From an uncultured Candidatus Binatia bacterium (GTDB lineage Bacteria; Desulfobacterota; Binatia; Bin18), in NCBI GenBank assembly GCA_965200965.1, contig OZ241744.1:960001-1024000 (forward strand): DNA of 64,000 nt, written 5' to 3'. Within the stretch, counting starts at the first letter, position 1; each line of letters starts with the position of its first letter. The position numbers and the translations under genes were made by a program. The notes beneath the pieces are model-generated. The model was given only the letters and a program-made list of their open reading frames with translations, was not told the origin of the DNA and did no database searches. Positions 10,924-32,157 of the stretch are shown piece after piece.

Positions 10924-11155
10924 GTGTGTGTTTCAATCCTCACCCAACCCAAAGCCTGGATGCGACGGGGCTGTTTTCCAGGCTGTCCGTCCGGTATAGG
11001 TGAGAACAGTGGGCAAATCAAGCCGCATAACCTCGAGCGGGCGACCGTCGCTCTCTTCCAGAGATATGATTGAGCTCTGCCGGCGACGGGGAGCGGTCTT
11101 CGATGCGGTCCTGGCCTGGCTGGGGAGCGGTCAGCAAGGCTCTCTTGGGTGGACT

Positions 11156-13426
11156 GTGGGTCGGACGCTGCACTGGTATATTGTGCGGGAGTTGCTCCGC
11201 CCTATCCTGCTCGCCTTTGGCGGCTTGACCGTCCTGCTGTTGACCACCGAACTGTTCGGGTTCTCTGATTTAATCATCAACCGCGGCTTTGGACTTGGGG
11301 CGATTATTCGGCTGATCGGCTTCAAGCTGATGGCTCTGGCCCCGACAACCCTGCCTTTTGCCTGCCTCGTCGGTATGCTTGTCGGACTCGGCCGCCTCAA
11401 AACCGACCTGGAAACCCTGGCCCTGCACGCCTCGGGCGTGTCTCAACGCCAGTGTCTTGGTCCAGTGCTGACGTTTTGCGCGGCCGTGACAGCCCTTGGC
11501 CTGCTCCTCAGCCTCAGCGTCTCGCCCTGGGCCAAGCGCGGTCTGGACAGCCTGCAAACACGCCTCGCGCGGGACAACCCGGCCGGCCTGCTGCGGGCCG
11601 GGGAGACACACACCTTTGGGAACACGCGTATTCTGGCGCGTGAGGTCTCAGACGGCGGCGAGCGGCTGAGCGGCGTACTGCTGTGGACCCCACACGTCTC
11701 AGGCGCAAGCTTTCTGGACGGCCAGACGATTTTTGCCCAGCGCGGCGAGGTGCGCTCCAACGGCAACGGCGAGGCGCAGCTGACGCTGTACAAGGGCTTG
11801 AGCCTGTCTCCGATTCGCGGCAGCGGCAACAGTACCCGTTTTGACACCCTGTGGGCATCGCTCCAGTATAGCCGGCCGCCGGCCGCCGCGGCCGGCGATG
11901 AACGACGCGCGGAACACCTGGCCTTCCGGGATGTGGCGCTGCGCGGCTGGCCACGGGACAGCCAGCCCGGAGATGAGCAGTCTGTACGGCTGGCTCAGAC
12001 CGAGTTTCACCGTCGCCTGGCCACACCGGTCGCCAGTCTGGTGTTCGGCCTGCTGGCTCCCCCCCTCGTCCTGCTCGGTCGGACCTTTTCGCGGGCGACC
12101 GGCGGGCTGGCCGGGCTGTTGATTACCGCTGTGTACTACGGCGTGCTCCAGCTTGGCAACGGCCTGATCCAGACCGGGCTTTCTCCCGCCGTGGGTGTTT
12201 GGCTGCCCAATATGCTGGTCGCTGGGATCGCCCTTGTCCTGGTGTCGGTCCAGAGCGGCTGGCCGCGCTGGAGAAACCCCATCGGCCTTTCTCTGGGTCA
12301 ATCGCCCTCCACTGCGATCGGCAATCGGAAAGATCACATCTTAGCGCGCTATGTGGCCCGTTCATACAGCTCTATGCTGCTGGTATCGTTTGGCTTTCTG
12401 TTCACTGGGTATGTTCTGGTTGATGTGCTGGAACGACTCCAGTGGTTTGCCCGCCACCAAGCCGAGTTTGGCGAGATCGTCCGTTTCTACTGTGCCCGCT
12501 CTCCGCTCCTGGCCTCGCGCATGCTTCCCATGTCGCTGTTGTTAGCTACCGCCCTGACCGTGGGGGTGCTGTCGGTCAACAGGGAGCTGATCGGGATGCG
12601 GGCCTGCGGCGTATCGGGGCTCCATGCCCTGAGCCCGATCGTGCTCATTGCCGGTCTGATAGCCCCGGCCTATCTGGTCCTGAACGAAGCGATGGTCCCC
12701 CGCACCAACGCCTGGGCCGACTGGCTCAAAATTACCGAGATCAAGGCTGTGGCGGGCGGGACCCGCCTCCAGCCGCTGGCCCTCTGGCATCAGCACGGCA
12801 AGCTGTACCACACCCGCCAGCTCGATACGATCAACGGACAAGCCCGTGACATCTCGATTTATGAACTTGACGACACCGGCCTGCCGACCAGTCGCACCGA
12901 TGCCCGCTCAGCCCGCCACATTGGCGACGGCCTCTGGGTCTTGACCGATCCCATCCGCCTGGCTGTTCGTGACAGTTCGTTTGAAGTGCTGCCGGCCCCC
13001 CCTCACATCCACCTTGGAACCGAGCCCCACACCCAACTTGACACCATGCACCTCAATGTCCGGCAATTATCCCGGACGATTCGCGACACCGAAGCCGGCG
13101 GCTACGATGCCACGGCCTACCGGGTGGCTTGGCATATGAAGCTCGCCGCCCCGCTGGCGTGTGTGTTCCTGCCGGTGGCCGCCCTCTTCTTCGCCCTCAG
13201 CGGCCCGCCGTTTCCCGGCCCGACCCTGACCATCCTGGTCAGCTGCGGCCTTGGTATCGGTTCAATCCTGCTGAGCGACCTGTTTGCCTCACTCGGTTAC
13301 GGCGGCCATGTTCCGCCCAGTCTTGCCGGCTGGGGACCGTCTGCGGTCCTGTGTCTGCTGGCCGCCGCCCTGGCCGTCCGCAGCCACTCGTTTGAAACCC
13401 TTCCCGGGCCGACCGGTCCCAATTGA
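11156..13426 (+). CDS. Fused LptF-LptG type permease (two YjgP/YjgQ halves in one ORF; the ORF is open from 11000, start uncertain)
   Basis: Half 1: TLHWYIVRELL...ETLALHASGVS...EFHRRLATP...WLPN. Half 2: ILARYVARSY...ELIGMRACGVS...WHMKLAAPL...AGWGP. No stop between them. Confidence 0.85.
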   Translation: MGRTLHWYIVRELLRPILLAFGGLTVLLLTTELFGFSDLIINRGFGLGAIIRLIGFKLMALAPTTLPFACLVGMLVGLGRLKTDLETLALHASGVSQRQCLGPVLTFCAAVTALGLLLSLSVSPWAKRGLDSLQTRLARDNPAGLLRAGETHTFGNTRILAREVSDGGERLSGVLLWTPHVSGASFLDGQTIFAQRGEVRSNGNGEAQLTLYKGLSLSPIRGSGNSTRFDTLWASLQYSRPPAAAAGDERRAEHLAFRDVALRGWPRDSQPGDEQSVRLAQTEFHRRLATPVASLVFGLLAPPLVLLGRTFSRATGGLAGLLITAVYYGVLQLGNGLIQTGLSPAVGVWLPNMLVAGIALVLVSVQSGWPRWRNPIGLSLGQSPSTAIGNRKDHILARYVARSYSSMLLVSFGFLFTGYVLVDVLERLQWFARHQAEFGEIVRFYCARSPLLASRMLPMSLLLATALTVGVLSVNRELIGMRACGVSGLHALSPIVLIAGLIAPAYLVLNEAMVPRTNAWADWLKITEIKAVAGGTRLQPLALWHQHGKLYHTRQLDTINGQARDISIYELDDTGLPTSRTDARSARHIGDGLWVLTDPIRLAVRDSSFEVLPAPPHIHLGTEPHTQLDTMHLNVRQLSRTIRDTEAGGYDATAYRVAWHMKLAAPLACVFLPVAALFFALSGPPFPGPTLTILVSCGLGIGSILLSDLFASLGYGGHVPPSLAGWGPSAVLCLLAAALAVRSHSFETLPGPTGPN

Positions 13427-17825: not shown

Positions 17826-19280
17826 ATGTCACACCCATCACCATCGGCCACCATTCGCGCCCGGCTCAAGCACCCTGTTATTGACTCGGACGGACATATG
17901 ATTGAGTTCGAGCCCGGGTTCCTGGACTACTTGAAGCAGGTCGGAGGCCAGTCCATGCTTGATCGCTATCTTTCCCCAGAGCGAAACACCGGGAGTTGGG
18001 GCAGGCTGTTTGACTGGTACCGCCTGTCAGCCGAGGAGCGCCGGGCCGGGCACGCCACGCGCTCCCCGTGGTGGGCCTTGCCGACCAAAAACACCCTGGA
18101 CCGGGCCACGGTCAGCCTGCCCAGGTTGCTCCATGAGCGCCTGGACGATATCGGCATTGACTTCACCGTGCTGTATCCCTCGCTGGGCCTGGCTTTCCCC
18201 CATATTGAGCATGCCGAACTGCGCAAGGCGAGCTGCCGGGCGCTCAACATGTTTGTGGCCGATTACTTCCGCGGCTACGCCGACCGCATGACCCCGGCCG
18301 CCTGCATTCCCATGCATACGCCTCAGGAAGCGATAGATGAGCTGGGCTACTGTGTCAGCATCCTTGGCCTCAAGGCGGTGATGATGGCCGGTCATGTCCA
18401 GCGGCCCATCCCGGCCGCGGTCGCCAGGGACGCCGGGCTGGGCCGGCACGCCTTCTGGATCGACAATTTCTGTATTGACAGCGCCTGCGACTACGACCCG
18501 GTGTGGGCCAAGTGCGTGGAACTCAAGGTTCCCCCGACCTTTCACTCGCCCGGCATGGGCTGGGGCAGCCGAACCACCTCAAACTATATGTATAACCACA
18601 CCGGGCATTTTGCCGCGGCCGGCGACGCGGTGTGTAAAGCCCTGTTCATGGGGGGTGTCACCAGGCGCTTTCCAGGTCTCAAGTTCGGCTTCCTGGAGAG
18701 TGGCGTTGGCTGGGCCGCGGACCTGTACGCCGGCATGGTTGCCCGCTGGGAGAAGCGCAACCCCCACGCCCTGGAGAATTATAACCCGGCCAACTTGAAT
18801 ACCGAGCTGTTTGTGGACCTCCACAGGCGCTATGGCGATGCCATCGTCAGGGCCAAGCTCGACAGCCTGAACCCGCGCCGCGGCTCTTTGGCCGGGACGC
18901 GTGAGGACCCGGACACCTTGGACGACTGGGCCCGCTGTGAGATCACCACCGCAGAGGATATCAAAGCCCTGTTTGTGCCGCATTTCTACTTTGGCTGTGA
19001 GGCCGATGATCCCCTTAACGCCACCGCCTTCAGCACGAGAATGAACCCCTTTGGCGCACGCCTCGGTGCCGTCTTCAGTTCAGACATGGGTCACTGGGAC
19101 GTACCCGACATGACCGCCGTCCTGGCCGAAGCGTATGAGCTGGTGGAAAAACAGCTTCTGACGGAACGTGATTTTGAGGATTTTGTGTTTACCAATCCGG
19201 CCGAGCTGTGGACCGGGATGAACCCCGAGTTTTTTTGCGGCACGGTAGTTGAAGACGCGGTCAAAAAAGTGGCGACCTGA
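17826..19280 (+). CDS. Amidohydrolase-2 family metal-dependent hydrolase
   Basis: VIDSDGH, LYPSLG, DPVWAKCVEL...FH, FLESGVGW, FSSDMGHWD. Confidence 0.88.
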   Translation: MSHPSPSATIRARLKHPVIDSDGHMIEFEPGFLDYLKQVGGQSMLDRYLSPERNTGSWGRLFDWYRLSAEERRAGHATRSPWWALPTKNTLDRATVSLPRLLHERLDDIGIDFTVLYPSLGLAFPHIEHAELRKASCRALNMFVADYFRGYADRMTPAACIPMHTPQEAIDELGYCVSILGLKAVMMAGHVQRPIPAAVARDAGLGRHAFWIDNFCIDSACDYDPVWAKCVELKVPPTFHSPGMGWGSRTTSNYMYNHTGHFAAAGDAVCKALFMGGVTRRFPGLKFGFLESGVGWAADLYAGMVARWEKRNPHALENYNPANLNTELFVDLHRRYGDAIVRAKLDSLNPRRGSLAGTREDPDTLDDWARCEITTAEDIKALFVPHFYFGCEADDPLNATAFSTRMNPFGARLGAVFSSDMGHWDVPDMTAVLAEAYELVEKQLLTERDFEDFVFTNPAELWTGMNPEFFCGTVVEDAVKKVAT

Positions 19281-19331
19281 TTTTCGGTCCCGCTTTTTGG
19301 ATAAGGACTGAACGCTCATTCAGGTTTTTGT

Positions 19332-19529
19332 ATGGCAGCAAAGGAATGGCCAGTCTGCCGGGCATGCGGTCAGGGGGTGCTCCTCCCCCTCTCGGACTAT
19401 GGACCGCACGGGGGCGACATCCCGTTCAAAGTCTGGGTGTGTCATAACCCGCACTGTGGCTTTAGCCTGCGTATTGACAAAGGCCGGGTCAGCGCTGAGC
19501 ATGTGTCCCAGCCCGCACGCCCGGCCTAG
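19332..19529 (+). CDS. Small zinc-ribbon protein
   Basis: 65 aa with CRAC...CHNPHC Cys pairs; fills the gap between annotated genes. Confidence 0.6.
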   Translation: MAAKEWPVCRACGQGVLLPLSDYGPHGGDIPFKVWVCHNPHCGFSLRIDKGRVSAEHVSQPARPA

Positions 19530-19581
19530 CGCTCTGCATCCGCCTCACCAGTTGGCTGCGGTCTGACCCCAGACCGACCGC

Positions 19582-20457
19582 CTACACGGTCTGCGCCCGC
19601 TCCACGACCGGGGCCACCCGGTCAATACAGCCGAGCGGGTTGCCCTCGGCAATCTCTTTGGCAAACGGCTGTGAGAAGAGGACGATCCGACCCGCGCCGG
19701 CGTCCCGGAAGGCAGCCAGTTCGTCGGCCGACAAGGCACCATCTCTGGGATCAACAAACGCCGACATCTCCAGCGCGTCCGGGTCACGGCCGGCCGCGCT
19801 GGTCATGTCCCGAATCGTGTTTACTTTTGTTTTATAGTCCTCGGGGTCAAACGCCAGCGGACACCAGCCGTCATAGGTGCGGGCGACCCGTTCCAGGGCT
19901 TTTGGCACATGTCCGCCCAAAAAGATCGGTGGACCGGACGGCTGGGCCGGTTTGGGATCGCAGTAGACGGGCGGGAACTGGACCATTTCGCCCTGATAGC
20001 TGGGCTCGTCTTGGGTCCAGCAGATGCGGAGCGCTTCGGTTGTCTCGCGCAGGCGTCTCCACCGCAGCCGAAAACTGGTACCCATGACCTCGGTCTCTTC
20101 GCGCAGCCAGCCGGCACCGACCCCGATCATCACCCGCCCGTTGGAGTACATGTCAAGACTGGCGATGACCTTGGCCGTGATCAGCGGCTCACGCTCCGGG
20201 AATAAACAAATGCCGGTCGCCAGCTTGAGCCGTGCGGTAGCCGCGGCGGCCATTGTCAGGGCCACAAACGGGTCTGCCCAGCGGTTGTAATGCTGGGGCA
20301 GTCTTCCCCCGCCCGGCACCTCGGTTTTGAAGCCAACCGGAATCACCGGGTGTTCGGGAATCCACAGCGACTCAAAGCCCAGCCCTTCGAGCCGCTGGGC
20401 AATTTCGGTGATATTCCTGGTGTTTGAGGTGGCCGGGATCAGAATGCCAATATCCAT
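19582..20457 (-). CDS. LLM-class (probably F420-dependent) oxidoreductase
   Basis: GFESLWIPEH, DPFVAL..AAAAT..LKLATGI, GVGAGWL.EE, PKPAQ..GPPIFLGG; RBS AAGGAGG. Confidence 0.88.
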   Translation of the reverse strand: MDIGILIPATSNTRNITEIAQRLEGLGFESLWIPEHPVIPVGFKTEVPGGGRLPQHYNRWADPFVALTMAAAATARLKLATGICLFPEREPLITAKVIASLDMYSNGRVMIGVGAGWLREETEVMGTSFRLRWRRLRETTEALRICWTQDEPSYQGEMVQFPPVYCDPKPAQPSGPPIFLGGHVPKALERVARTYDGWCPLAFDPEDYKTKVNTIRDMTSAAGRDPDALEMSAFVDPRDGALSADELAAFRDAGAGRIVLFSQPFAKEIAEGNPLGCIDRVAPVVERAQTV

Positions 20458-20474
20458 CGTGTGTTCCTCCTTTT

Positions 20475-21632
20475 TCAGGCTGCCGGAAGGCTGTCCAGCG
20501 GCAGCAGAAAAGCCCACAGGTCGCGCCGGACGCCGGCGTTTTTCATGGCCAGTTGAGCCGAACGCATGACCTCGCCGGCTTTGGTCAAGTCCCGATACCA
20601 GCGCGCGCCGGCCCAGGCTGCCGGGGTATGTGTGACAATCGCCAGGGCCGCGGTCTCGTAATAGCCTCGGATGTCCTGGGCCACCCGGGCCGGAATGCCG
20701 GGAATCTCAGCCTCTTTCCACGGCGTTCCCTGGGCAATACGGATAAACGCCTCGAGCGCAGCCGGGATATCGTCCGGCCCGACCGCGCGGCCGGCGGCAA
20801 CGCGGTTGCCGTACTGGGCTACCGCCCGGTCGTAGGCTGCCCGCAGGCCACGCGCCTCATCCACCGCGGGGTGGGCGTCGGGGTCGTAGCGGGGCGGGAG
20901 GGAGCAGACCAGGGTCTCGGAGCCCTGGTCTGTCACCCGCTCAGGAAAATCTTCCAGGACCGGCTGGTCAGATTTCAGCAGGGAAAATCCGTGGGCCAGG
21001 ACCCGGTGCTGGAAGGCTGCATCGCCGGGCTTGCCGAGCGGACGGCCGAGCGGGAAGTCGCAGAACAGACCACGCGGCGGAGCCGTATTGAGCAGCTGCT
21101 CACGGATGGAACCCAACACGATCGTGGCCATACCGGCCGCCTCAAAGATATGGGCCAGCGTACTCACGGTACGCGTACACAGCGGTCAGACCGGGGTCAG
21201 CACGACGACATCAACGCCCTGCTCGCGCAGACAGGCCGCTCCGGCCGGTCCGCCGTCCAGGCGAATCCGGGCCAGATCAAACTGGTTGCCGGCGTAGGCG
21301 AGGTGCTGGTCGGCCAGCCTGCCAATTGTGCCCTGGGCGGCGAGTTCACCAAGCCGATCGATCGGGAACACCACATTCAGATCAACCGCCACGCCCGAGG
21401 TGTCGAAGTTCGGACTCCAGTGCCCAACCAGATAGTCCCGCCGCGAGCCGTCAAGCACCCGGTAGCTGGTATCCATCGGGGCAAAGTCGTCCTGCTCAGG
21501 GTGGTGGAGTGAGGCCGATGTCACCAGCGCAACGGTGGCCTCTTCCAGCCGCGGCGGGCTGGTAAAGGCCGGGGTATCAAACACCGGACACTCAATGTTG
21601 CGGACCTCGTCTTTGATCCCTGTATCAGACAT
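20475..21632 (-). CDS. Selenoprotein of the D-proline/glycine reductase B (PrdB/GrdB-like) family with a C-terminal extension, 385 aa, Sec149
   Basis: ORFs 21186-21632 and 20475-21167 are in the same frame, separated by a TGA at 21186-21188 plus 6 codons. Read-through gives VVLTPV-U-PLCTRTVSTLAH (UxxC). PrdB-like motifs VALVTSA, DLNVVFPIDRL, PPR...FPLGRPLG. A SECIS-like hairpin follows the UGA. Confidence 0.9.
21158..21188 (-). promoter_or_regulatory. Bacterial SECIS element
   Basis: mRNA reads UGA-CCGCUGUGUAC-GCGUAC[CGUGA]GUACGC: a perfect 6-bp stem starting 11 nt after the UGA, with G-U in the apical loop. Confidence 0.8.
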
Positions 21633-21641
21633 GCCGCCTCC

Positions 21642-22841
21642 TCAGTTGAGTTTGTAGACCTTGGCCACGTTTTCGCCCAGGACGCCGCGGCGGGCCGTGT
21701 CAGTCATGGGTGCCACCATCTCGCCCAGTTCTTCGAGATAGTTATCGGGATGGTCGGGGTGGGGGTAATCGCTGGCCCAGAAAAACTTGTCCTCGCCAAC
21801 TATGGCGGTCAGCCCGGCAATCGTCCGCTCTTCGGGGTCGGCCGAAATATAACACTGGCGCTTGAAGTAAGAGGAAGGCGGGTCTTTCAGCCTGACCGTT
21901 GCGTTCAGCGTCGTGCCTTTGAAGATGGCGTCGGCCCGGTCCAGGAAGTAGCCGATCCAGCCGGCCTGCGACTCTAAGACCACAGCGCGCAGGCGCGGGA
22001 AGCGCTCAAAGACGCCGAACTGAAAAAACGTGGCAAAGGCGTGCTGGACGGCCTGACCGGCGAACAGATCGTTATACCAGGCCGCCCAGCCAAACTTGTC
22101 GTAGCGGTGGTGGATGCTGAACTCGGGCGGCTCAAAGGTCGGATGAATGGCCAGCGGCACGTCGAGGTCTTGGGCCGCGGCAAAGACCGCGTCGTGGCGC
22201 GGGTCGCCATGCGGAATGCGGGTGATCGTAAATGGAGCGACAAACGCGCCTTGACAGCCGTCTTTGACGGCGCGTTGCAGCTCACGCGCAGCTGCCTCAG
22301 GCTCGCCCAGGGACAGATGGGCAATCGGGATCAGCCGTCCACCGGAGTCGCGGCAAAAGTCGGCAATCCAGCGGTTATAGGCCCGGCAGCAGGCCGACGA
22401 CAGCTCGGCATCAAACAGCTCGGCCTCCCACAGCAGACCGAGGGTCGGATACAGAATGGCCTTTTCCATATGTTCCCGGTCGAGGAGTTCCAGCCGCTCC
22501 TTCATGTGCATTGTCCCAAACGCGGCACCCCGCAGATAGGTCTGCTCCGGTCCCATCCGAATGGCCCGTATGTCTTGCGGGTTGACCTCGCCACTCAGCG
22601 CCTTGCGGCGGAGTTGGTGCGCTTCTTCAACCTGCTTGCCCATACCGCCCAGCGTGCCCAGCATCCCGGGTTTGACCAGCTTGGCCGGCTTTTGATCAAC
22701 CTCCAGGTATTCATAACCATCCTCACCGACCCGCAGACGCAAGGCTCGTTCACGATACTGGGGTTCGAGATAGGATTCCCACAGATCGGGCGGTTCCAGA
22801 ATATGGCCGTCACAATCAATCACTACAGGTTCTGCCGTCAT
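21642..22841 (-). CDS. Amidohydrolase-2 family hydrolase/decarboxylase
   Basis: VIDCDGHILEP, LYPTLG, RAYNRWIADFC, LAIHP, LESQAGW, WASDYPHPD. Confidence 0.9.
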   Translation of the reverse strand: MTAEPVVIDCDGHILEPPDLWESYLEPQYRERALRLRVGEDGYEYLEVDQKPAKLVKPGMLGTLGGMGKQVEEAHQLRRKALSGEVNPQDIRAIRMGPEQTYLRGAAFGTMHMKERLELLDREHMEKAILYPTLGLLWEAELFDAELSSACCRAYNRWIADFCRDSGGRLIPIAHLSLGEPEAAARELQRAVKDGCQGAFVAPFTITRIPHGDPRHDAVFAAAQDLDVPLAIHPTFEPPEFSIHHRYDKFGWAAWYNDLFAGQAVQHAFATFFQFGVFERFPRLRAVVLESQAGWIGYFLDRADAIFKGTTLNATVRLKDPPSSYFKRQCYISADPEERTIAGLTAIVGEDKFFWASDYPHPDHPDNYLEELGEMVAPMTDTARRGVLGENVAKVYKLN

Positions 22842-22915
22842 GTCCTCCGTCCTCTCGTGTCTTGTTGCTGCGCCCCTTGGACTACAGCCTTTGTGTTTTT
22901 GCGCTCATAAGCGGC

Positions 22916-23254
22916 TCATACCCCAGCCCGCCGGGGCGCAATACCGGCCACATCAACATAGACCTCGTCGCCCTCAATTTTGACCCGATAGCGCGCCAAC
23001 TCGCAGTCATCGGGATTGATGCCCCGGCCGGTGGTCACATCGAACTCCCAGCGGTGCGAGTTGCAGATCAATACCCGCCGTCCGTCGAACTCACCGGCAG
23101 ACAGGGGGAAACTCTGGTGCGGACACTCGCCCTGTATGGCGATCAGTCCACCGCCGTGGGGATGGACAAGGACAATGGCTTGTCCGTCTACCTCGAATTC
23201 GGCAAGGTCGCCCTCCCAGACCTCATCCACCCGACACACCCGGATAAACGCCAT
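22916..23254 (-). CDS. Rieske [2Fe-2S] ferredoxin, toluene-4-monooxygenase TmoC-like
   Basis: CPHQ...CNSH ligands; TGRGINPDDCELARY closely recalls TmoC. Confidence 0.85.
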   Translation of the reverse strand: MAFIRVCRVDEVWEGDLAEFEVDGQAIVLVHPHGGGLIAIQGECPHQSFPLSAGEFDGRRVLICNSHRWEFDVTTGRGINPDDCELARYRVKIEGDEVYVDVAGIAPRRAGV

Positions 23255-23451
23255 CGTCTTTCGCCACTCTATCAGGACAGGGGATCGTCGCCATGTGTTC
23301 AGCGTGTTTCGCTCTGGTGCGGCAACACTAAGCTATCTCACCGCTCCGAGCAACACCTGTCATACGCCCAGCGGGGATATGGCCGATGTACCGCCATCTG
23401 CAGGAGCGCGAGCTGCCGCATTGCGGGCGGTTGGCTGAGGGCGTGGCGTGG

Positions 23452-23910
23452 TCATGGGCTGTCAAGCTGTGGCGTCACGCGTACCGCAACAATTTTGCCG
23501 GCCTGCACCCGGTCGGCTACGGGCCTCGCCCAATACAGCAGCCATGCCGCCCAGTATTTGCGCTCATATCCGACATTGATCCGGTCCAGAGTCGGCCTAT
23601 CGGTCACGATGTGTGTCTGTCCGGTAAAGGCCGGGCCGGCCGTGTCGTCAAGCCACACTTGGGCCGGACTACCCCGCCGGATGCGCCGGGCTTTATACGA
23701 GCCTGGCGCGGTATGGAAATAGATGTCCTGCCCGTCGTACAGGAACCAGACAGGAGCGGCCCTGCCCCATTCGCCGTTCGCGCGCCGGGTCGCTATGGAT
23801 ATCAGTTTCCGGGTCTCGAGAGCCGTTTTCATCGAATCCTTCAGTTGGCCCGCGCCATAGGCGACAACGCACACGCTGAGGGCCAGCAGAAGAGCGAGAA
23901 GAAGAGGCAT
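23452..23910 (-). CDS. Exported pyridoxamine-5'-phosphate oxidase-like (split-barrel) protein
   Basis: RBS GGAGG; signal peptide MPLLLALLLALSVCVVAYG; IATRRANG...PVWF...KARRIRR..P...Y.RKY. Confidence 0.7.
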   Translation of the reverse strand: MPLLLALLLALSVCVVAYGAGQLKDSMKTALETRKLISIATRRANGEWGRAAPVWFLYDGQDIYFHTAPGSYKARRIRRGSPAQVWLDDTAGPAFTGQTHIVTDRPTLDRINVGYERKYWAAWLLYWARPVADRVQAGKIVAVRVTPQLDSP

Positions 23911-23968
23911 GAGGGTTCCTCCATCCGTCGGGAGCGGCACGTTCAGGTCCGCAAATACGACCCCCCGT

Positions 23969-24208
23969 TCACAGCAATGATCCTGCCAGTGGCAAAGTTG
24001 GCCTGACCGGAAGACAGAAAGGCGACAATCGCGGCACCTTCCTCGGGAAGGTCTGGTGCGGCCTGCCGGCCAGCGAGGCCAGGGTCTCCTCAGCCACCGA
24101 GCGGTCCTGGTTATAGTGGATCGCGACCCGCCCGCCCCGCTGGGCGATGGCGCGGCCAATGCCACGCGCCGCGCCGGTGACGAGGACGGCTTTGTTTGTC
24201 ACGCTCAT
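23969..24208 (-). pseudogene. Truncated SDR oxidoreductase fragment
   Basis: AVLVTGAARGIGRAIA...VAIHY Rossmann start, but similarity stops after about 55 aa and there is no YxxxK. Confidence 0.7.
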
Positions 24209-24309
24209 GCCTATGCCTCCGCTTGCTTCCTGACCCGGAGACTACCATAGATTCAAGAAGAATTGAATGATATGGCAGTCGCATGAACAGTGCAGGAGGA
24301 ACAGAGTCT

Positions 24310-25622: not shown

Positions 25623-27209
25623 TTAGCAGCCCGGCGGGTCACAAGTTCGTGTAGAAGGTGAGCGGAAGGGCGACTTGGTGCCCCAGAAATGGGAGAACGG
25701 CATCCCGGCGTTCTGGAAAGCGCGCTTGATATGATCGGCGGGAATAAAGGCTGCTCCGCGCCGGTTTCCGAGACTCGCAAGCGGTCCTCCGGCAATAAGG
25801 ACTCCGGCGACATGCCGGTTGCCCCGCCCGCCAAAGGCCACGAGTGCACCAGAGTCTCCCCCTATCACACCAGCATTAAGCCAATCGACACAGCACACGC
25901 GATACAGTTTGCCGCTACTTTTGTAGATCATGGCCCGTTGGGTAGTCAGGACCTTCGAAGTGACGTGTGTGCGTGACCCCCAAATCACCAGTCTGTGGCC
26001 GCTTCTGGATGTGCGAATCCTGCCAGACGGACCGTTGATATAGCTGCTGGCAGACCGTTGCATTCGGCGGGTCGGTTCGACACCGGTCGGGTTATTATGA
26101 GGCGGGGCATCATAGTGGCCAAAGGGAGTATGGGCGATGGCCGCAATGTCAGGATAGATCGAGGTCGGATTATTGGGCGCACTGTCTAGCAAACAGGGTC
26201 GGTCATTGCTGACAGAGTAACTACACGGGGTCAGGCGGAACGTCTTGGCCACATAGCCAAAGAGGTTCCCTGAGGATACCGTCGGTTGGTAGATAGGCAC
26301 AGTGCCCGGGGTCGGATTCGGATCATTCATGTTCAACTTGACATTATGGGCAGCCGTGAGGGACCAGATCAGGCAACACCCGCCGGCGTGCCGCACGACA
26401 TGGGGACCGAGCGTCCCTGCCCACATGGATCTGTTCGTGGAAGGATTGGCCGACATGATCCCAGCCCCGGCCGGCACAGGCCGAAAGCGCGCATTCTGGT
26501 GGCTCTCCGCCTGCATCATGTCTTCGATCACCACTTTGACGGGCACACCCTCAATTGTCAGCGGGACGAGGTCGGTGTTGCGTGCCGCGTTGGGACGAAT
26601 TGACACTTCGAATCCTTCAGTTCCAATACCGAATGCATGGACGCCAGGAATACTCATAATCTCGTCCATGTTGCGGTAATGGATGCGGATCAGGTCAATT
26701 TTCGGCACGGGATAGTCATCGGAAAACGGCTCATCGTCAGTCGGACCAACATAGGCTTGGCGTCCAATATACCAGATCGGTTCGCCGGTGTCAGGGTCAA
26801 TCGTTTCGCGCTCTTCGCCGTCCTCCAGCGGAGCAGGATTCGGGACATGGCGCAGAATCAGGTGTTCCTTGTCCCCGACTTCGACACTCTCGAAGATTTG
26901 GTAACGTCCTTCATTAAGTCCTGGCACGGTGAAACATGTGTCACACTCGAAGTGTGGCAGACGGTCGTCTACGCGCCCGATCGGGCCGGGGTACTGCGGT
27001 TCGGGGTCTTCGTCTCCAGGCAGAGAGGGGTCGTCAAGGGCACCGCTTCCGTCATCAACAGAACCGATGGAGCCTTGCCCCTGTCCCGGTCCCATACCAG
27101 GATCAAGCAAGTTTGATCCTGATTGGGCAAAAGCGGACGGAACAGTGAGAAAGGAAAACAGGGTAACCGGGAATATCCAGAACCAACGACGGGAAAAAAT
27201 CTGGCACAT
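25623..27209 (-). CDS. Secreted trypsin-like (S1/Nal1-like) serine protease with acidic pro-region
   Basis: Signal peptide ending SAFA-Q; catalytic triad motifs LTAAH, DIAAI and GGDSG. Confidence 0.8.
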   Translation of the reverse strand: MCQIFSRRWFWIFPVTLFSFLTVPSAFAQSGSNLLDPGMGPGQGQGSIGSVDDGSGALDDPSLPGDEDPEPQYPGPIGRVDDRLPHFECDTCFTVPGLNEGRYQIFESVEVGDKEHLILRHVPNPAPLEDGEERETIDPDTGEPIWYIGRQAYVGPTDDEPFSDDYPVPKIDLIRIHYRNMDEIMSIPGVHAFGIGTEGFEVSIRPNAARNTDLVPLTIEGVPVKVVIEDMMQAESHQNARFRPVPAGAGIMSANPSTNRSMWAGTLGPHVVRHAGGCCLIWSLTAAHNVKLNMNDPNPTPGTVPIYQPTVSSGNLFGYVAKTFRLTPCSYSVSNDRPCLLDSAPNNPTSIYPDIAAIAHTPFGHYDAPPHNNPTGVEPTRRMQRSASSYINGPSGRIRTSRSGHRLVIWGSRTHVTSKVLTTQRAMIYKSSGKLYRVCCVDWLNAGVIGGDSGALVAFGGRGNRHVAGVLIAGGPLASLGNRRGAAFIPADHIKRAFQNAGMPFSHFWGTKSPFRSPSTRTCDPPGC

Positions 27210-27407
27210 GACACACATCCTTTCTACCCATGGTATGGGTATGGGCGGATAAATTGGACAGCGAACATCCACGGTCAGGTCTACTCTCCTTTCTTCGGCC
27301 AGCGTGGCCGATGCCAGATTGTTGCGTCTGCGCATCACACCGCTCCTGTCTCCGCACCAGAACGGAAGAATGATCAAGAGCGGCGGCAGCTGTATACAGA
27401 ACCTATT

Positions 27408-27423
27408 TGCAAGCTGTGTGCCA
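27408..27423 (-). promoter_or_regulatory. Sigma54 (-24/-12) promoter upstream of the protease gene
   Basis: Minus strand TGGCACACAGCTTGCA, with exact GG-N10-GC spacing. Confidence 0.8.
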
Positions 27424-27474
27424 CGCCGAAAACGGCTGTACAGGACCGATTTACCACCTCTCGCCACCCGCGAC

Positions 27475-27490
27475 GTCCCATTTTTAGGAC
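27475..27490. promoter_or_regulatory. Putative enhancer (bEBP binding site)
   Basis: GTCCCA-TTTT-TAGGAC, a near-copy of the palindrome at 29032-29047, about 50 bp upstream of the -24 box. Confidence 0.55.
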
Positions 27491-27709
27491 AGAGCAAGGG
27501 CTTAGATGTTGCAAAGCTGGGATACCGCGCTATGAGGCAGTGGGGATGCAACCGCCCTGGCAAGTCTGATCACAGAGCTGCTGGCGGTGGAAACCGGCCA
27601 GTATGCGGAGCGGGGGATTCAGACCAACAAAACGGACTAGCGCCATTCGGACCGCTCCCAAATCGCGCCCACCGCATAGCTCGCAAGGTCGGGATGATTT
27701 GAGCGAAGC

Positions 27710-30199: not shown

Positions 30200-30429
30200 A
30201 TGGCTTATCCTTTCTCTTGCTTTCCGGTTGAGCCCAGAGATAGGCTGCGGTCAGCAAAGGAGTTCACTATGCAGTTCCTGATTACCATCACCTGGCGCGC
30301 CGGCTCAACCGTCGCGCAGAACCGTTCAGCCGCCAGCGTTGAACCCAGAGGACCCCTCTTTTCTCCCGTCTGTCCGTGTATGGGAGACTTTGCTGAGCGT
30401 TTCTGTTGAGCCCGAAAAGGAGTAGAGCC

Positions 30430-32157
30430 ATGCCCCGCCTCGTCCTGTCCTGTTTTGTGTCCCTCTTTGTCCTTCTCCCTGGAGCCGGTCCGGGCTGGGG
30501 CCAGACCTCACCGCCCACCCTGGAGAGCCGGGTCCAAACTTTAGAGGCCACAGTCGCCAAGCTGACCCGCTACATTCAGGTGATTGAGAATGCAGCCACC
30601 AGCACTTACCACGGCCTCACAGGCCCGCATGTGGTCTTCACCGGGGCCAATGTCCACATCCGCAGCGGGTCGGGGGTGACCCATAAAGGGCGGTGGGTCA
30701 ACGGAGACTGGGAGAGCGAGGCGGTGGGGCTGGGCAATCTGATTATCGGCTACAACGAGGCGAACGATTCGCCGACTGCGGACACGGCCCAGCGGGGCGG
30801 CTCGCACAACCTGGTGATTGGGAAGAATCATCAGTACCTCACCTCCGGCGGGCTGGTGGCGGGGCATAACAACGTCATCTCCGGCTATGCGACCAGCGTG
30901 AGCGGGGGCCAGAGCAACACGGCGACCAGCAGCGTGTCGAGCGTGAGCGGCGGCTACCGTAACACGGCCAGTAACTGGGCGGCGAGCGTGAGCGGCGGCG
31001 AGCTCAACACGGCCAGCGGCGGGACTTCCAGCGTGAGCGGAGGATCCCTCAACCGAGCCACTAACACGAACGCCAGCGTGAGTGGGGGCCGGAAGAACAC
31101 AGCCAGCGGCAGAATATCCAGCGTGAGCGGCGGCTGGAGCAACACAGCCAGTGGTTATGGGGGCAGCGTGCTCGGCGGCAACAGCAACACGGCCATCGGC
31201 GGTAACTCCAGCGTGAGCGGCGGCGTTGGCAACACGACCCGAGGGAGTGACTCCAGCGTAAGCGGGGGCTTTGGCAACATCGCCGGCGGCTCGGCGACCA
31301 GCGTGCTGGGCGGCCAGCGTAACACGGCGACGAGCAGCGCGGCCAGCGTCGGCGGGGGCAGCGGCGTGACCGCGACCGGCGTGGCCGACTTCCGCCACCT
31401 CTGGCCTGCCTGCCTGACCACCGAAGCCGCGACCGGCCAAACCACGAAAGATGTGGTCTTTGAGGGCTGCAACATCCACATCCGCAACGGGTATAGCACC
31501 AAGCGGACCAATACCATCAACGGGCGCGGCAACCTGATCGTCGGCTACAACGAAGACAATCGCATCACCGTCGGGGTTGCCCCGCGGACCGCGGGCACCA
31601 ATGACCGCAGCGGTTCGCACAATGTGATAATTGGCCCCGAGCACGAGTACAGCGGTCATAGTGGCTTGGTGGTGGGCTTAGGGAACATCATCAGCGGTGA
31701 CTATGCCAGCGTGAGCGGCGGCAAAGACAACGAAGCAAGCGGTGACTATGCCAGCGTGAGCGGCGGACAGGACAACGAAGCGTGGGAAGACGCCTCGAGC
31801 GTGAGCGGCGGCTTCGGGAACACGGCCAGCGACTCGTATGCCAGCGTGAGCGGCGGACAGGACAACGAAGCGCGGGGCGACTATGCCAGCGTGAGCGGCG
31901 GCAAAGACAACGAAGCAAGCGGTGACCATGCCAGCGTGAGCGGCGGACAGAACAACGAAGCGCGGGGCGACTATGCCAGCGTGAGCGGCGGCAAAGACAA
32001 CGAAGCGCGGGGCGACTATGCCAGCGTGAGCGGCGGACAGGACAACGAAGCGCGGGGCGACTATGCCAGCGTGAGCGGCGGACAGAACAACACGGCGAGC
32101 GGGAAGCGGACCAGCATCAACGGGGGCAAGAACCAGACGGTCAGCGGCGACCTCTAG
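30430..32157 (+). CDS. Secreted duplicated beta-solenoid protein with 15-aa SVSGGxxNxAxGxxA repeats
   Basis: Signal peptide, short coiled coil, and two copies of a cap module (VVF.G.N.HIR.G...GNLI.GYNE...R.GSHN..IG), each followed by about 10 SVSGG repeats. Confidence 0.8.
   Translation: MPRLVLSCFVSLFVLLPGAGPGWGQTSPPTLESRVQTLEATVAKLTRYIQVIENAATSTYHGLTGPHVVFTGANVHIRSGSGVTHKGRWVNGDWESEAVGLGNLIIGYNEANDSPTADTAQRGGSHNLVIGKNHQYLTSGGLVAGHNNVISGYATSVSGGQSNTATSSVSSVSGGYRNTASNWAASVSGGELNTASGGTSSVSGGSLNRATNTNASVSGGRKNTASGRISSVSGGWSNTASGYGGSVLGGNSNTAIGGNSSVSGGVGNTTRGSDSSVSGGFGNIAGGSATSVLGGQRNTATSSAASVGGGSGVTATGVADFRHLWPACLTTEAATGQTTKDVVFEGCNIHIRNGYSTKRTNTINGRGNLIVGYNEDNRITVGVAPRTAGTNDRSGSHNVIIGPEHEYSGHSGLVVGLGNIISGDYASVSGGKDNEASGDYASVSGGQDNEAWEDASSVSGGFGNTASDSYASVSGGQDNEARGDYASVSGGKDNEASGDHASVSGGQNNEARGDYASVSGGKDNEARGDYASVSGGQDNEARGDYASVSGGQNNTASGKRTSINGGKNQTVSGDL
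30895..31380 (+). repeat. Degenerate 45-bp coding tandem repeat, about 11 units
   Basis: agcgtgagcgg(c/g)gg-like unit recurs every 45 nt. Confidence 0.8.
31696..32154 (+). repeat. Highly homogeneous 45-bp coding tandem repeat, about 10 units
   Basis: Units such as gccagcgtgagcggcggacaggacaacgaagcgcggggcgactat recur nearly identically. Confidence 0.9.

Follow-up and report, generated by a model that had tools for sequence, protein, structure and literature searches.

Two apparent genes on the minus strand of the window (the whole stretch of DNA analysed here, 64,000 nt from an uncultured Candidatus Binatia bacterium) are very likely a single gene of 385 codons in which an internal UGA encodes selenocysteine (Sec). 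Reading through from 21632 to 20475 yields 148 aa, a TGA, a further 236 aa and a terminal TGA. The internal TGA at 21188-21186 is codon 149 of a 385-residue protein and translates in the context TPV-U-PLC, which upholds, for the minus strand, the original prediction that two same-frame ORFs are joined at this position. Judged from its alignments, the product is a PrdB homologue carrying the active-site residues, and it is a fresh member of an uncharacterised ocean selenoprotein group that was catalogued in 2005-2008. We propose that it is likely a self-contained PrdB-type selenol reductase with a different substrate, whose helical C-terminal domain is predicted to replace PrdA. The features of the gene and its immediate neighbours are collected in Table 1.

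Table 1. Features of the long-form PrdB-like gene and of the adjoining genes (window coordinates).
Feature	Position	Strand	Basis or remark
Long-form PrdB-like selenoprotein gene	20475..21632	-	385 codons + stop; full-length collinear relatives
Ribosome-binding site AGGAGG	21637..21642	-	4 nt before ATG, from sequence
PrdB-like alpha/beta catalytic domain, residues ~1-234	20931..21632	-	TIGR04483, PrdB alignment
Predicted Sec149 (in-frame TGA) in U-P-L-C152	21186..21188	-	TGA conservation, alignment with PrdB U151
SECIS-type hairpin	21158..21174	-	6-bp stem, 5-nt loop CGUGA, loop begins 17 nt after UGA
C243, third conserved cysteine (L-x-C-x-x-P), linker ahead of C-terminal domain	20904..20906	-	alignment
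C-terminal domain, residues ~240-385, predicted all-helical	20478..20915	-	relatives, predicted model
Amidohydrolase_2 gene, upstream, 9-nt gap	21642..22841	-	domain match
F420-type LLM oxidoreductase, downstream, 17-nt gap	19582..20457	-	TIGR03619 above cut-off
Rieske ferredoxin, head of same-strand run	22916..23254	-	domain match

Sequence conservation indicates that UGA149 is almost certainly decoded as Sec. We compared 95 loci, comprising the best 80 of at least 581 related stretches and 15 from relatives, with the locus itself and three duplicates included in the count. TGA at codon 149 and the motif U-P-L/M-C are present in all 95, despite varied terminal stops (TAG in 40, TGA in 34 and TAA in 21). 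The original prediction depended on homologues having Cys or Sec, rather than Trp or Arg, at this position, and all 10 full-length database homologues, taken from protein entries, have Cys there as part of C-x-x-C. Among 14 representative segments, position 149 is Cys in 12, Gly in one and Arg in one.

The SECIS hairpin that had been claimed for this gene, GCGUAC[CGUGA]GUACGC, is present on the minus strand at 21174-21158, beginning 11 nt past the TGA. The rules for bacterial SECIS elements in the available text of PMC13188914 specify a loop of 3-9 nt, a stem of 4-16 bp, a spacing of 16-37 nt and a G within the first two loop positions, and the hairpin agrees with every one of them (loop 5, stem 6, spacing 17, G at loop position 2). 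Its energy is borderline, with the bare stem at -6.8 kcal/mol missing the published -7.5 limit and a 28-nt fold reaching -8.2, and the 91-nt hairpin region shows no folding advantage over shuffled sequences (z 0.21). Perfect stems of at least 6 bp with the same geometry lie 3′ of 62 of 2297 TGA, 20 of 771 TAA and 42 of 1220 TAG stops of coding-like ORFs in the same genome, which is ~3% for each stop type. By itself the hairpin is modest to weak evidence, near chance, and conservation is the convincing part. Across 91 coding sequences, counted without one frameshifted locus and the three duplicates, the least variable of 129 synonymous columns were T158, T153, R154, G115 and T155, four of which fall within the hairpin. 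At one stem position, 10 of the 91 sequences show a compensatory change of U-A to C-G; these 10 are kin rather than independent and may reflect few events. In 4 of the 91, the outermost pair does not form. It is the TGA in 95 of 95 loci, together with the synonymous constraint at the hairpin, that makes the SECIS reading convincing.

The genome, a single contig that is 99.3% complete with 5.7% contamination, contains the full set of selA, selB, selC and selD that had been suggested as a check: a tRNA-Sec was found, and SelA, SelB and SelD match above cut-off, with SelD itself carrying an in-frame TGA. Additionally, 48 of 50 carrier genomes drawn from the 80 best loci have a SelA match that passes the cut-off. 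In the genome studied here, selA (+) and the tRNA-Sec gene (-) lie tail to tail at G000:C1:1720603-1722075, and selB adjoins selD near 3.22 Mb.

The claim that the protein is a PrdB homologue was borne out by profile and pairwise comparisons. Residues 12-218 match TIGR04483, the best NCBIfam match, with an E of 3e-32 and 111.9 bits, under the cut-off of 300, and annotated PrdB proteins are 31-32% identical over residues 1-224, with U149 aligning to U151 and the following x-x-C kept. PF07355 matches at 23.5 bits against a cut-off of 22 with the first ~220 profile positions absent, and the TIGR01918 match, which begins at profile position 221, scores 30.2 bits, under its cut-off of 65.45. In the alignment, H71, D77, G115, R154, E164 and R187 are common to the long form, PrdB and GrdB-like proteins; H71, G115, E164 and R187 are invariant in all 46 rows of long, short, PrdB and GrdB-like sequences. 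A catalytic-domain tree of these 46 rows places all 28 long forms in one clade with 99/96 support, the bootstrap being not fully settled, and this clade is separate from PrdB, from GrdB-like proteins and from the short orphan forms. The best 80 of at least 581 related stretches are led by sequences of Candidatus Binatia (87-92% identity), with Entotheonella, marine Pseudomonadales and Acidimicrobiia next (63-78%).

We observed a number of further relatives. Loci L096-L102 are more divergent long forms of 34-51% identity, and one genome (G006) has two long copies. Short forms number one to four in many genomes of the class, nearly all with TGA. The genome studied here has one as its second PrdB-like gene (locus L006, G000:C1:3479957-3480520, plus strand), which has an in-frame TGA (U-P-V-C) and a hairpin and is divergent from another LLM gene. 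Three UGSC-family genes of the same genome likewise combine an in-frame TGA with a 3′ hairpin; they lie at G000:C1 positions 2801916-2802350 (-), 2189923-2190360 (+) and 666300-666731 (-). A short PrdB-like gene on a Roseomonas plasmid (L124, NZ_CP061179.1) has a true Cys codon (C-P-V-C) and adjoins selO.

The predicted model of the whole chain is confident (pLDDT 92.9, pTM 0.91) and shows an alpha/beta domain joined through an extended linker to a helical domain; the pTM suggests that the two domains sit in a fixed mutual placement. Foldseek finds nothing for the full model at an E of 0.001 or lower, an absence that is no proof of a new fold. Residues 27-234 return generic alpha/beta fold matches only, the best with Z 8.7, rmsd 3.4 and 136 aligned residues. 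PDB sequence and profile searches for solved relatives, with the PrdB/GrdB domain included, gave nothing significant.

The extra C-terminal region named in the original prediction is real and conserved, with 157 relatives among 50%-identity representatives and no Pfam family below E 0.006 in any of 75 members. Folding it, which had been proposed as a check, gives a domain predicted to be all-helical within the whole-chain model. Its conserved residues are E259, R269, D320, Y325, E326, W345, T350, G353 and W373. C243, which opens the domain, is Cys in 77 of 83 aligned segments (50%-cluster representatives). A fold search with the domain alone reached at best Z 4.4 (rmsd 5.0, 74 aligned), and the best Foldseek E values were 1.2 in the PDB and 0.68 among viral models. 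Matches to the domain occur in 2 of 151 genomes of the phylum. When 149 representatives of the domain were sorted, 16 spanned the Sec site, 59 began in the C-half of PrdB, 54 were domain-only (at most 25 residues before the match) and 20 had longer unmatched leaders. Of the last 20, the 10 inspected look like frameshifted or chimeric gene calls, so that free-standing forms of the domain are at most candidates.

The long form differs from the characterised members of the superfamily in both its domains and its company. PrdB (TIGR04483; Terrisporobacter, the Ligilactobacillus plasmid copies and the C. difficile Prd system of PMC11229817) shares the Sec position and U-x-x-C, but has 241 aa and a U-G-T-C motif and lies in a prdC-prdA-prdH-prdB cluster, whereas the long form has ~145 extra residues and U-P-L-C, without the prdC-prdA-prdH genes. 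GrdB, GrdF and GrdH (PF07355, TIGR01918) and FarB of Synergistota (PMC10838667) have a homologous Sec-bearing domain; in comparison with GrdB and FarB, the long form is without the first ~220 profile positions and stops at U-x-x-C where their motif runs on to U-x-x-C-x-x-C, and searches for GrdA and GrdE found neither. Short orphan PrdB-like selenoproteins, such as the L006 copy, share the core, the UxxC and the lack of partners, but have no such helical C-terminal domain and branch outside the long-form clade.

With a PF07355-related domain, a UxxC motif and close relatives that are listed there, the gene belongs to the marine 'Proline reductase PrdB' UxxC group, with which it shares the motif TPV-U-PLCTRT. 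The accessible parts of two papers report 42 Sargasso 'PrdB' UxxC selenoproteins (PMC1088965) and 235 Sec ocean sequences of the group against 110 with Cys (PMC2398784). The novelty implied by the original prediction does not hold, since the visible part of Dataset S1 of PMC2398784 already prints long-form entries under '#Proline reductase' that share the motif and include the C-terminal domain in full; JCVI_READ_1091141751968 and other reads contain this domain to its end. In their accessible text, the papers on the marine group treat its members as proline reductases and leave the extra domain, the missing PrdA and the third cysteine unremarked, and the available text of PMC1794560 and 10.1101/2022.07.06.499078 holds nothing further on the long form. 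A literature search confined largely to papers outside subscription found no functional study of the partner-less group or of its C-terminal domain. Three points are new here: the long forms group in a single clade that excludes true PrdB, the extra domain is predicted all-helical, and C243 is conserved.

The absence of prdA, grdE and grdA near the gene, part of the original prediction, extends to the entire genome. PF09338 (PrdA/GrdE) has no match in it, the positive control being found in 4 of 151 genomes of the phylum, and GrdA is likewise absent, with positive controls matched in 4 of 4. A tblastn search of the genome with two PrdA, one PrdH-like protein and a proline racemase gave no match at E 0.01; TIGR04480 had no match either, in a search in which no positive control matched. 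The sole PrdC match lies near the second PrdB-like gene and reads as a protein that we take, from its motif, to be of the complex I NuoF type. PF09338 was found in 2 of 50 long-form carriers, both Entotheonella, and orphan status, that is, without PrdA or GrdE, is general for the long-form group. Entotheonella (L114-L116; G194, G222) has several GrdE-like and GrdB-like genes and provides the only tested carriers with PF09338. The original prediction also noted no thioredoxin genes nearby; the genome encodes thioredoxins and a TrxR-like gene (match 326, under the cut-off of 343) elsewhere.

Genes for a Rieske ferredoxin, an amidohydrolase, the selenoprotein and an F420-type LLM enzyme follow each other closely on the same strand, and the selenoprotein gene is probably on the same transcript as the upstream amidohydrolase; a search for a sigma-70 promoter found no match within 19200-24300. 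The description of these neighbours as aerobic-type catabolic genes was not borne out, as the three are not specifically aerobic and are not conserved beside the gene. No partner is shared across 80 loci, and neighbours are conserved only within lineages. The commonest neighbour cluster is MFS transporters (19 of 80 loci), and an amidohydrolase cluster occurs at 13 of 80. Since the neighbours are lineage-bound and the genome has ~43 LLM-like and ~30 amidohydrolase-like loci, they carry little information.

The window has other features of note. A 583-aa protein at 30406-32157 (+) with many S-V-S-G-G repeats and weak matches to UspA1 and an ice-binding beta-roll is probably, from its sequence, a surface beta-roll protein. 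A long ORF at 25623-27563 (-) has a signal-like segment, an acidic region and a G-D-S-G motif that is presumably serine-protease-like; the 530 aa tested had no Pfam or NCBIfam match. A single ORF at 11000-13426 (+) contains two LptF/LptG stretches and is apparently a fused LptF-LptG.

The chemistry proposed for the long form draws on the known reductases, as described in the accessible text of the papers cited. Proline reductase binds proline through a pyruvoyl group; its Sec attacks the alpha carbon of the bound substrate, and the selenoether is then resolved by a cysteine (PMC11229817, PMC10298544). GrdB-type complexes act on glycine betaine and on fluoroacetate, which can form no Schiff base, without a pyruvoyl proprotein (PMC10838667), but these systems still employ a GrdE-like subunit and GrdA/GrdC. 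In the long form, SelB would read the hairpin and Sec149 would be inserted, a step that is virtually assured. The Sec149 selenolate would then attack a carbon of a small substrate with a pre-activated leaving group, for which a pyruvoyl Schiff base would be unneeded; candidate leaving groups are a betaine-type ammonium, a sulfonium or a halide beside a carboxylate. C152 would attack the resulting selenoether, freeing the reduced product and leaving an Se-S bond, as proposed for proline reductase, and C243 in the linker would relay electrons from the thioredoxin system, reopening that bond. The role proposed for the C-terminal domain is to close over the site and determine specificity. We put the joint probability of an activated substrate, resolution by C152 and relay by C243 at about 0.4.

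We favour a self-contained enzyme acting on an activated substrate because the protein retains U-x-x-C and the shared His, Asp and Arg, no partner was found, and betaine and fluoroacetate offer a precedent. Counted in support of this explanation are the Sec machinery, the PrdB-like active site, the single clade, the lack of PrdA, GrdE and GrdA and of a conserved neighbour, the pTM, the conservation of C243, and the thioredoxins and TrxR-like gene of the genome. Counted against it are the precedents' reliance on a GrdE-like subunit and GrdA/GrdC and the mix of residues at position 149 in the 14 segments. Additionally, C. difficile PrdB U151C gives no proline reduction (accessible text of PMC11229817), yet Cys forms of the group look common, so plain thiol-disulfide chemistry fits better on this point.

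That point is part of the case for the main rival, a stand-alone thiol or selenol oxidoreductase for disulfides, sulfoxides or peroxides. On this reading the PrdB fold would have been turned to redox housekeeping, with the C-terminal domain serving to bind a substrate that is a protein or a thiol. This is possible, though we consider it rather doubtful. The UxxC/CxxC motif with its apparent Cys forms and the lack of a conserved catabolic operon agree with it, as does the abundance of the group, which the accessible text of PMC1088965 and PMC2398784 places among the commonest ocean selenoproteins beside peroxiredoxin- and thioredoxin-like families. Such an enzyme would nevertheless have kept the His, Asp and Arg of C-N-cleaving enzymes, and the best fold alignment is a weak one to generic alpha/beta sandwiches.

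We consider it unlikely that the protein supplies the Sec subunit to a larger reductase complex, with a partner gene elsewhere whose product is unrelated to PrdA/GrdE or too distant from them. The characterised relatives all act in complexes (accessible text of PMC11229817 and PMC10298544), and the genome has the second PrdB-like Sec gene and the three UGSC-type Sec genes; however, no neighbour is shared between lineages in the 80 loci, and the gene occurs in unrelated phyla at 63-78% identity, among the best 80 of at least 581 stretches, without a companion.

A single-chain analogue of PrdA plus PrdB, in which a cut before C243 would create a pyruvoyl group on the C-terminal domain and an amine Schiff base beside Sec149, is very unlikely. 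The near-invariant C243 stands in L-x-C-x-x-P, spaced as in the L-T-C-I-G-P site that two annotated PrdA proteins have, and the accessible text of PMC11229817 describes a cut of PrdA between T420 and C421 that happens only while it is bound to PrdB. Against this, the likeness is merely a three-residue spacing noticed post hoc, the preceding Thr is not kept (A 44, S 14, T 9 and V 9 of 82), the domain shows no profile resemblance to pyruvoyl proproteins (E 0.52 to PrdA, probability 1.6% to a GrdE), and tblastn found no PrdH-like maturase in the genome.

A true D-proline reductase subunit is highly improbable: TIGR04483 is the best NCBIfam match and JGI labels some relatives PrdB, but the score lies far below the cut-off, the clade is separate from PrdB, the genome has no match to prdA, prdH or proline racemase, and its sole PrdC match is the NuoF-type protein. 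There is next to no chance that the TGA is a real stop, separating two genes or marking a pseudogene; gene callers do split the gene there, most database matches are C-terminal halves of ~214-245 aa and the hairpin alone is near chance, but the TGA is kept in all 95 loci whatever the terminal stop, full-length Cys homologues exist and the break lies within one domain of the model.

Annotation of these genes needs correction, as pipelines split them at the UGA, and the name 'proline reductase', in use since 2005-2008, is unlikely to be right given the missing PrdA. With its 385 residues, monomeric look and apparent natural Cys forms, the long form offers a practical way into the function of the group and the structure of the PrdB/GrdB domain, and C243 and the helical domain offer specific residues to test. 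If the single-chain reading is true, the long form would be a one-chain reinvention of proline reductase that performs Stickland-type C-N cleavage without PrdA or PrdH, and such cleavage would be available to oxygen-exposed marine bacteria.
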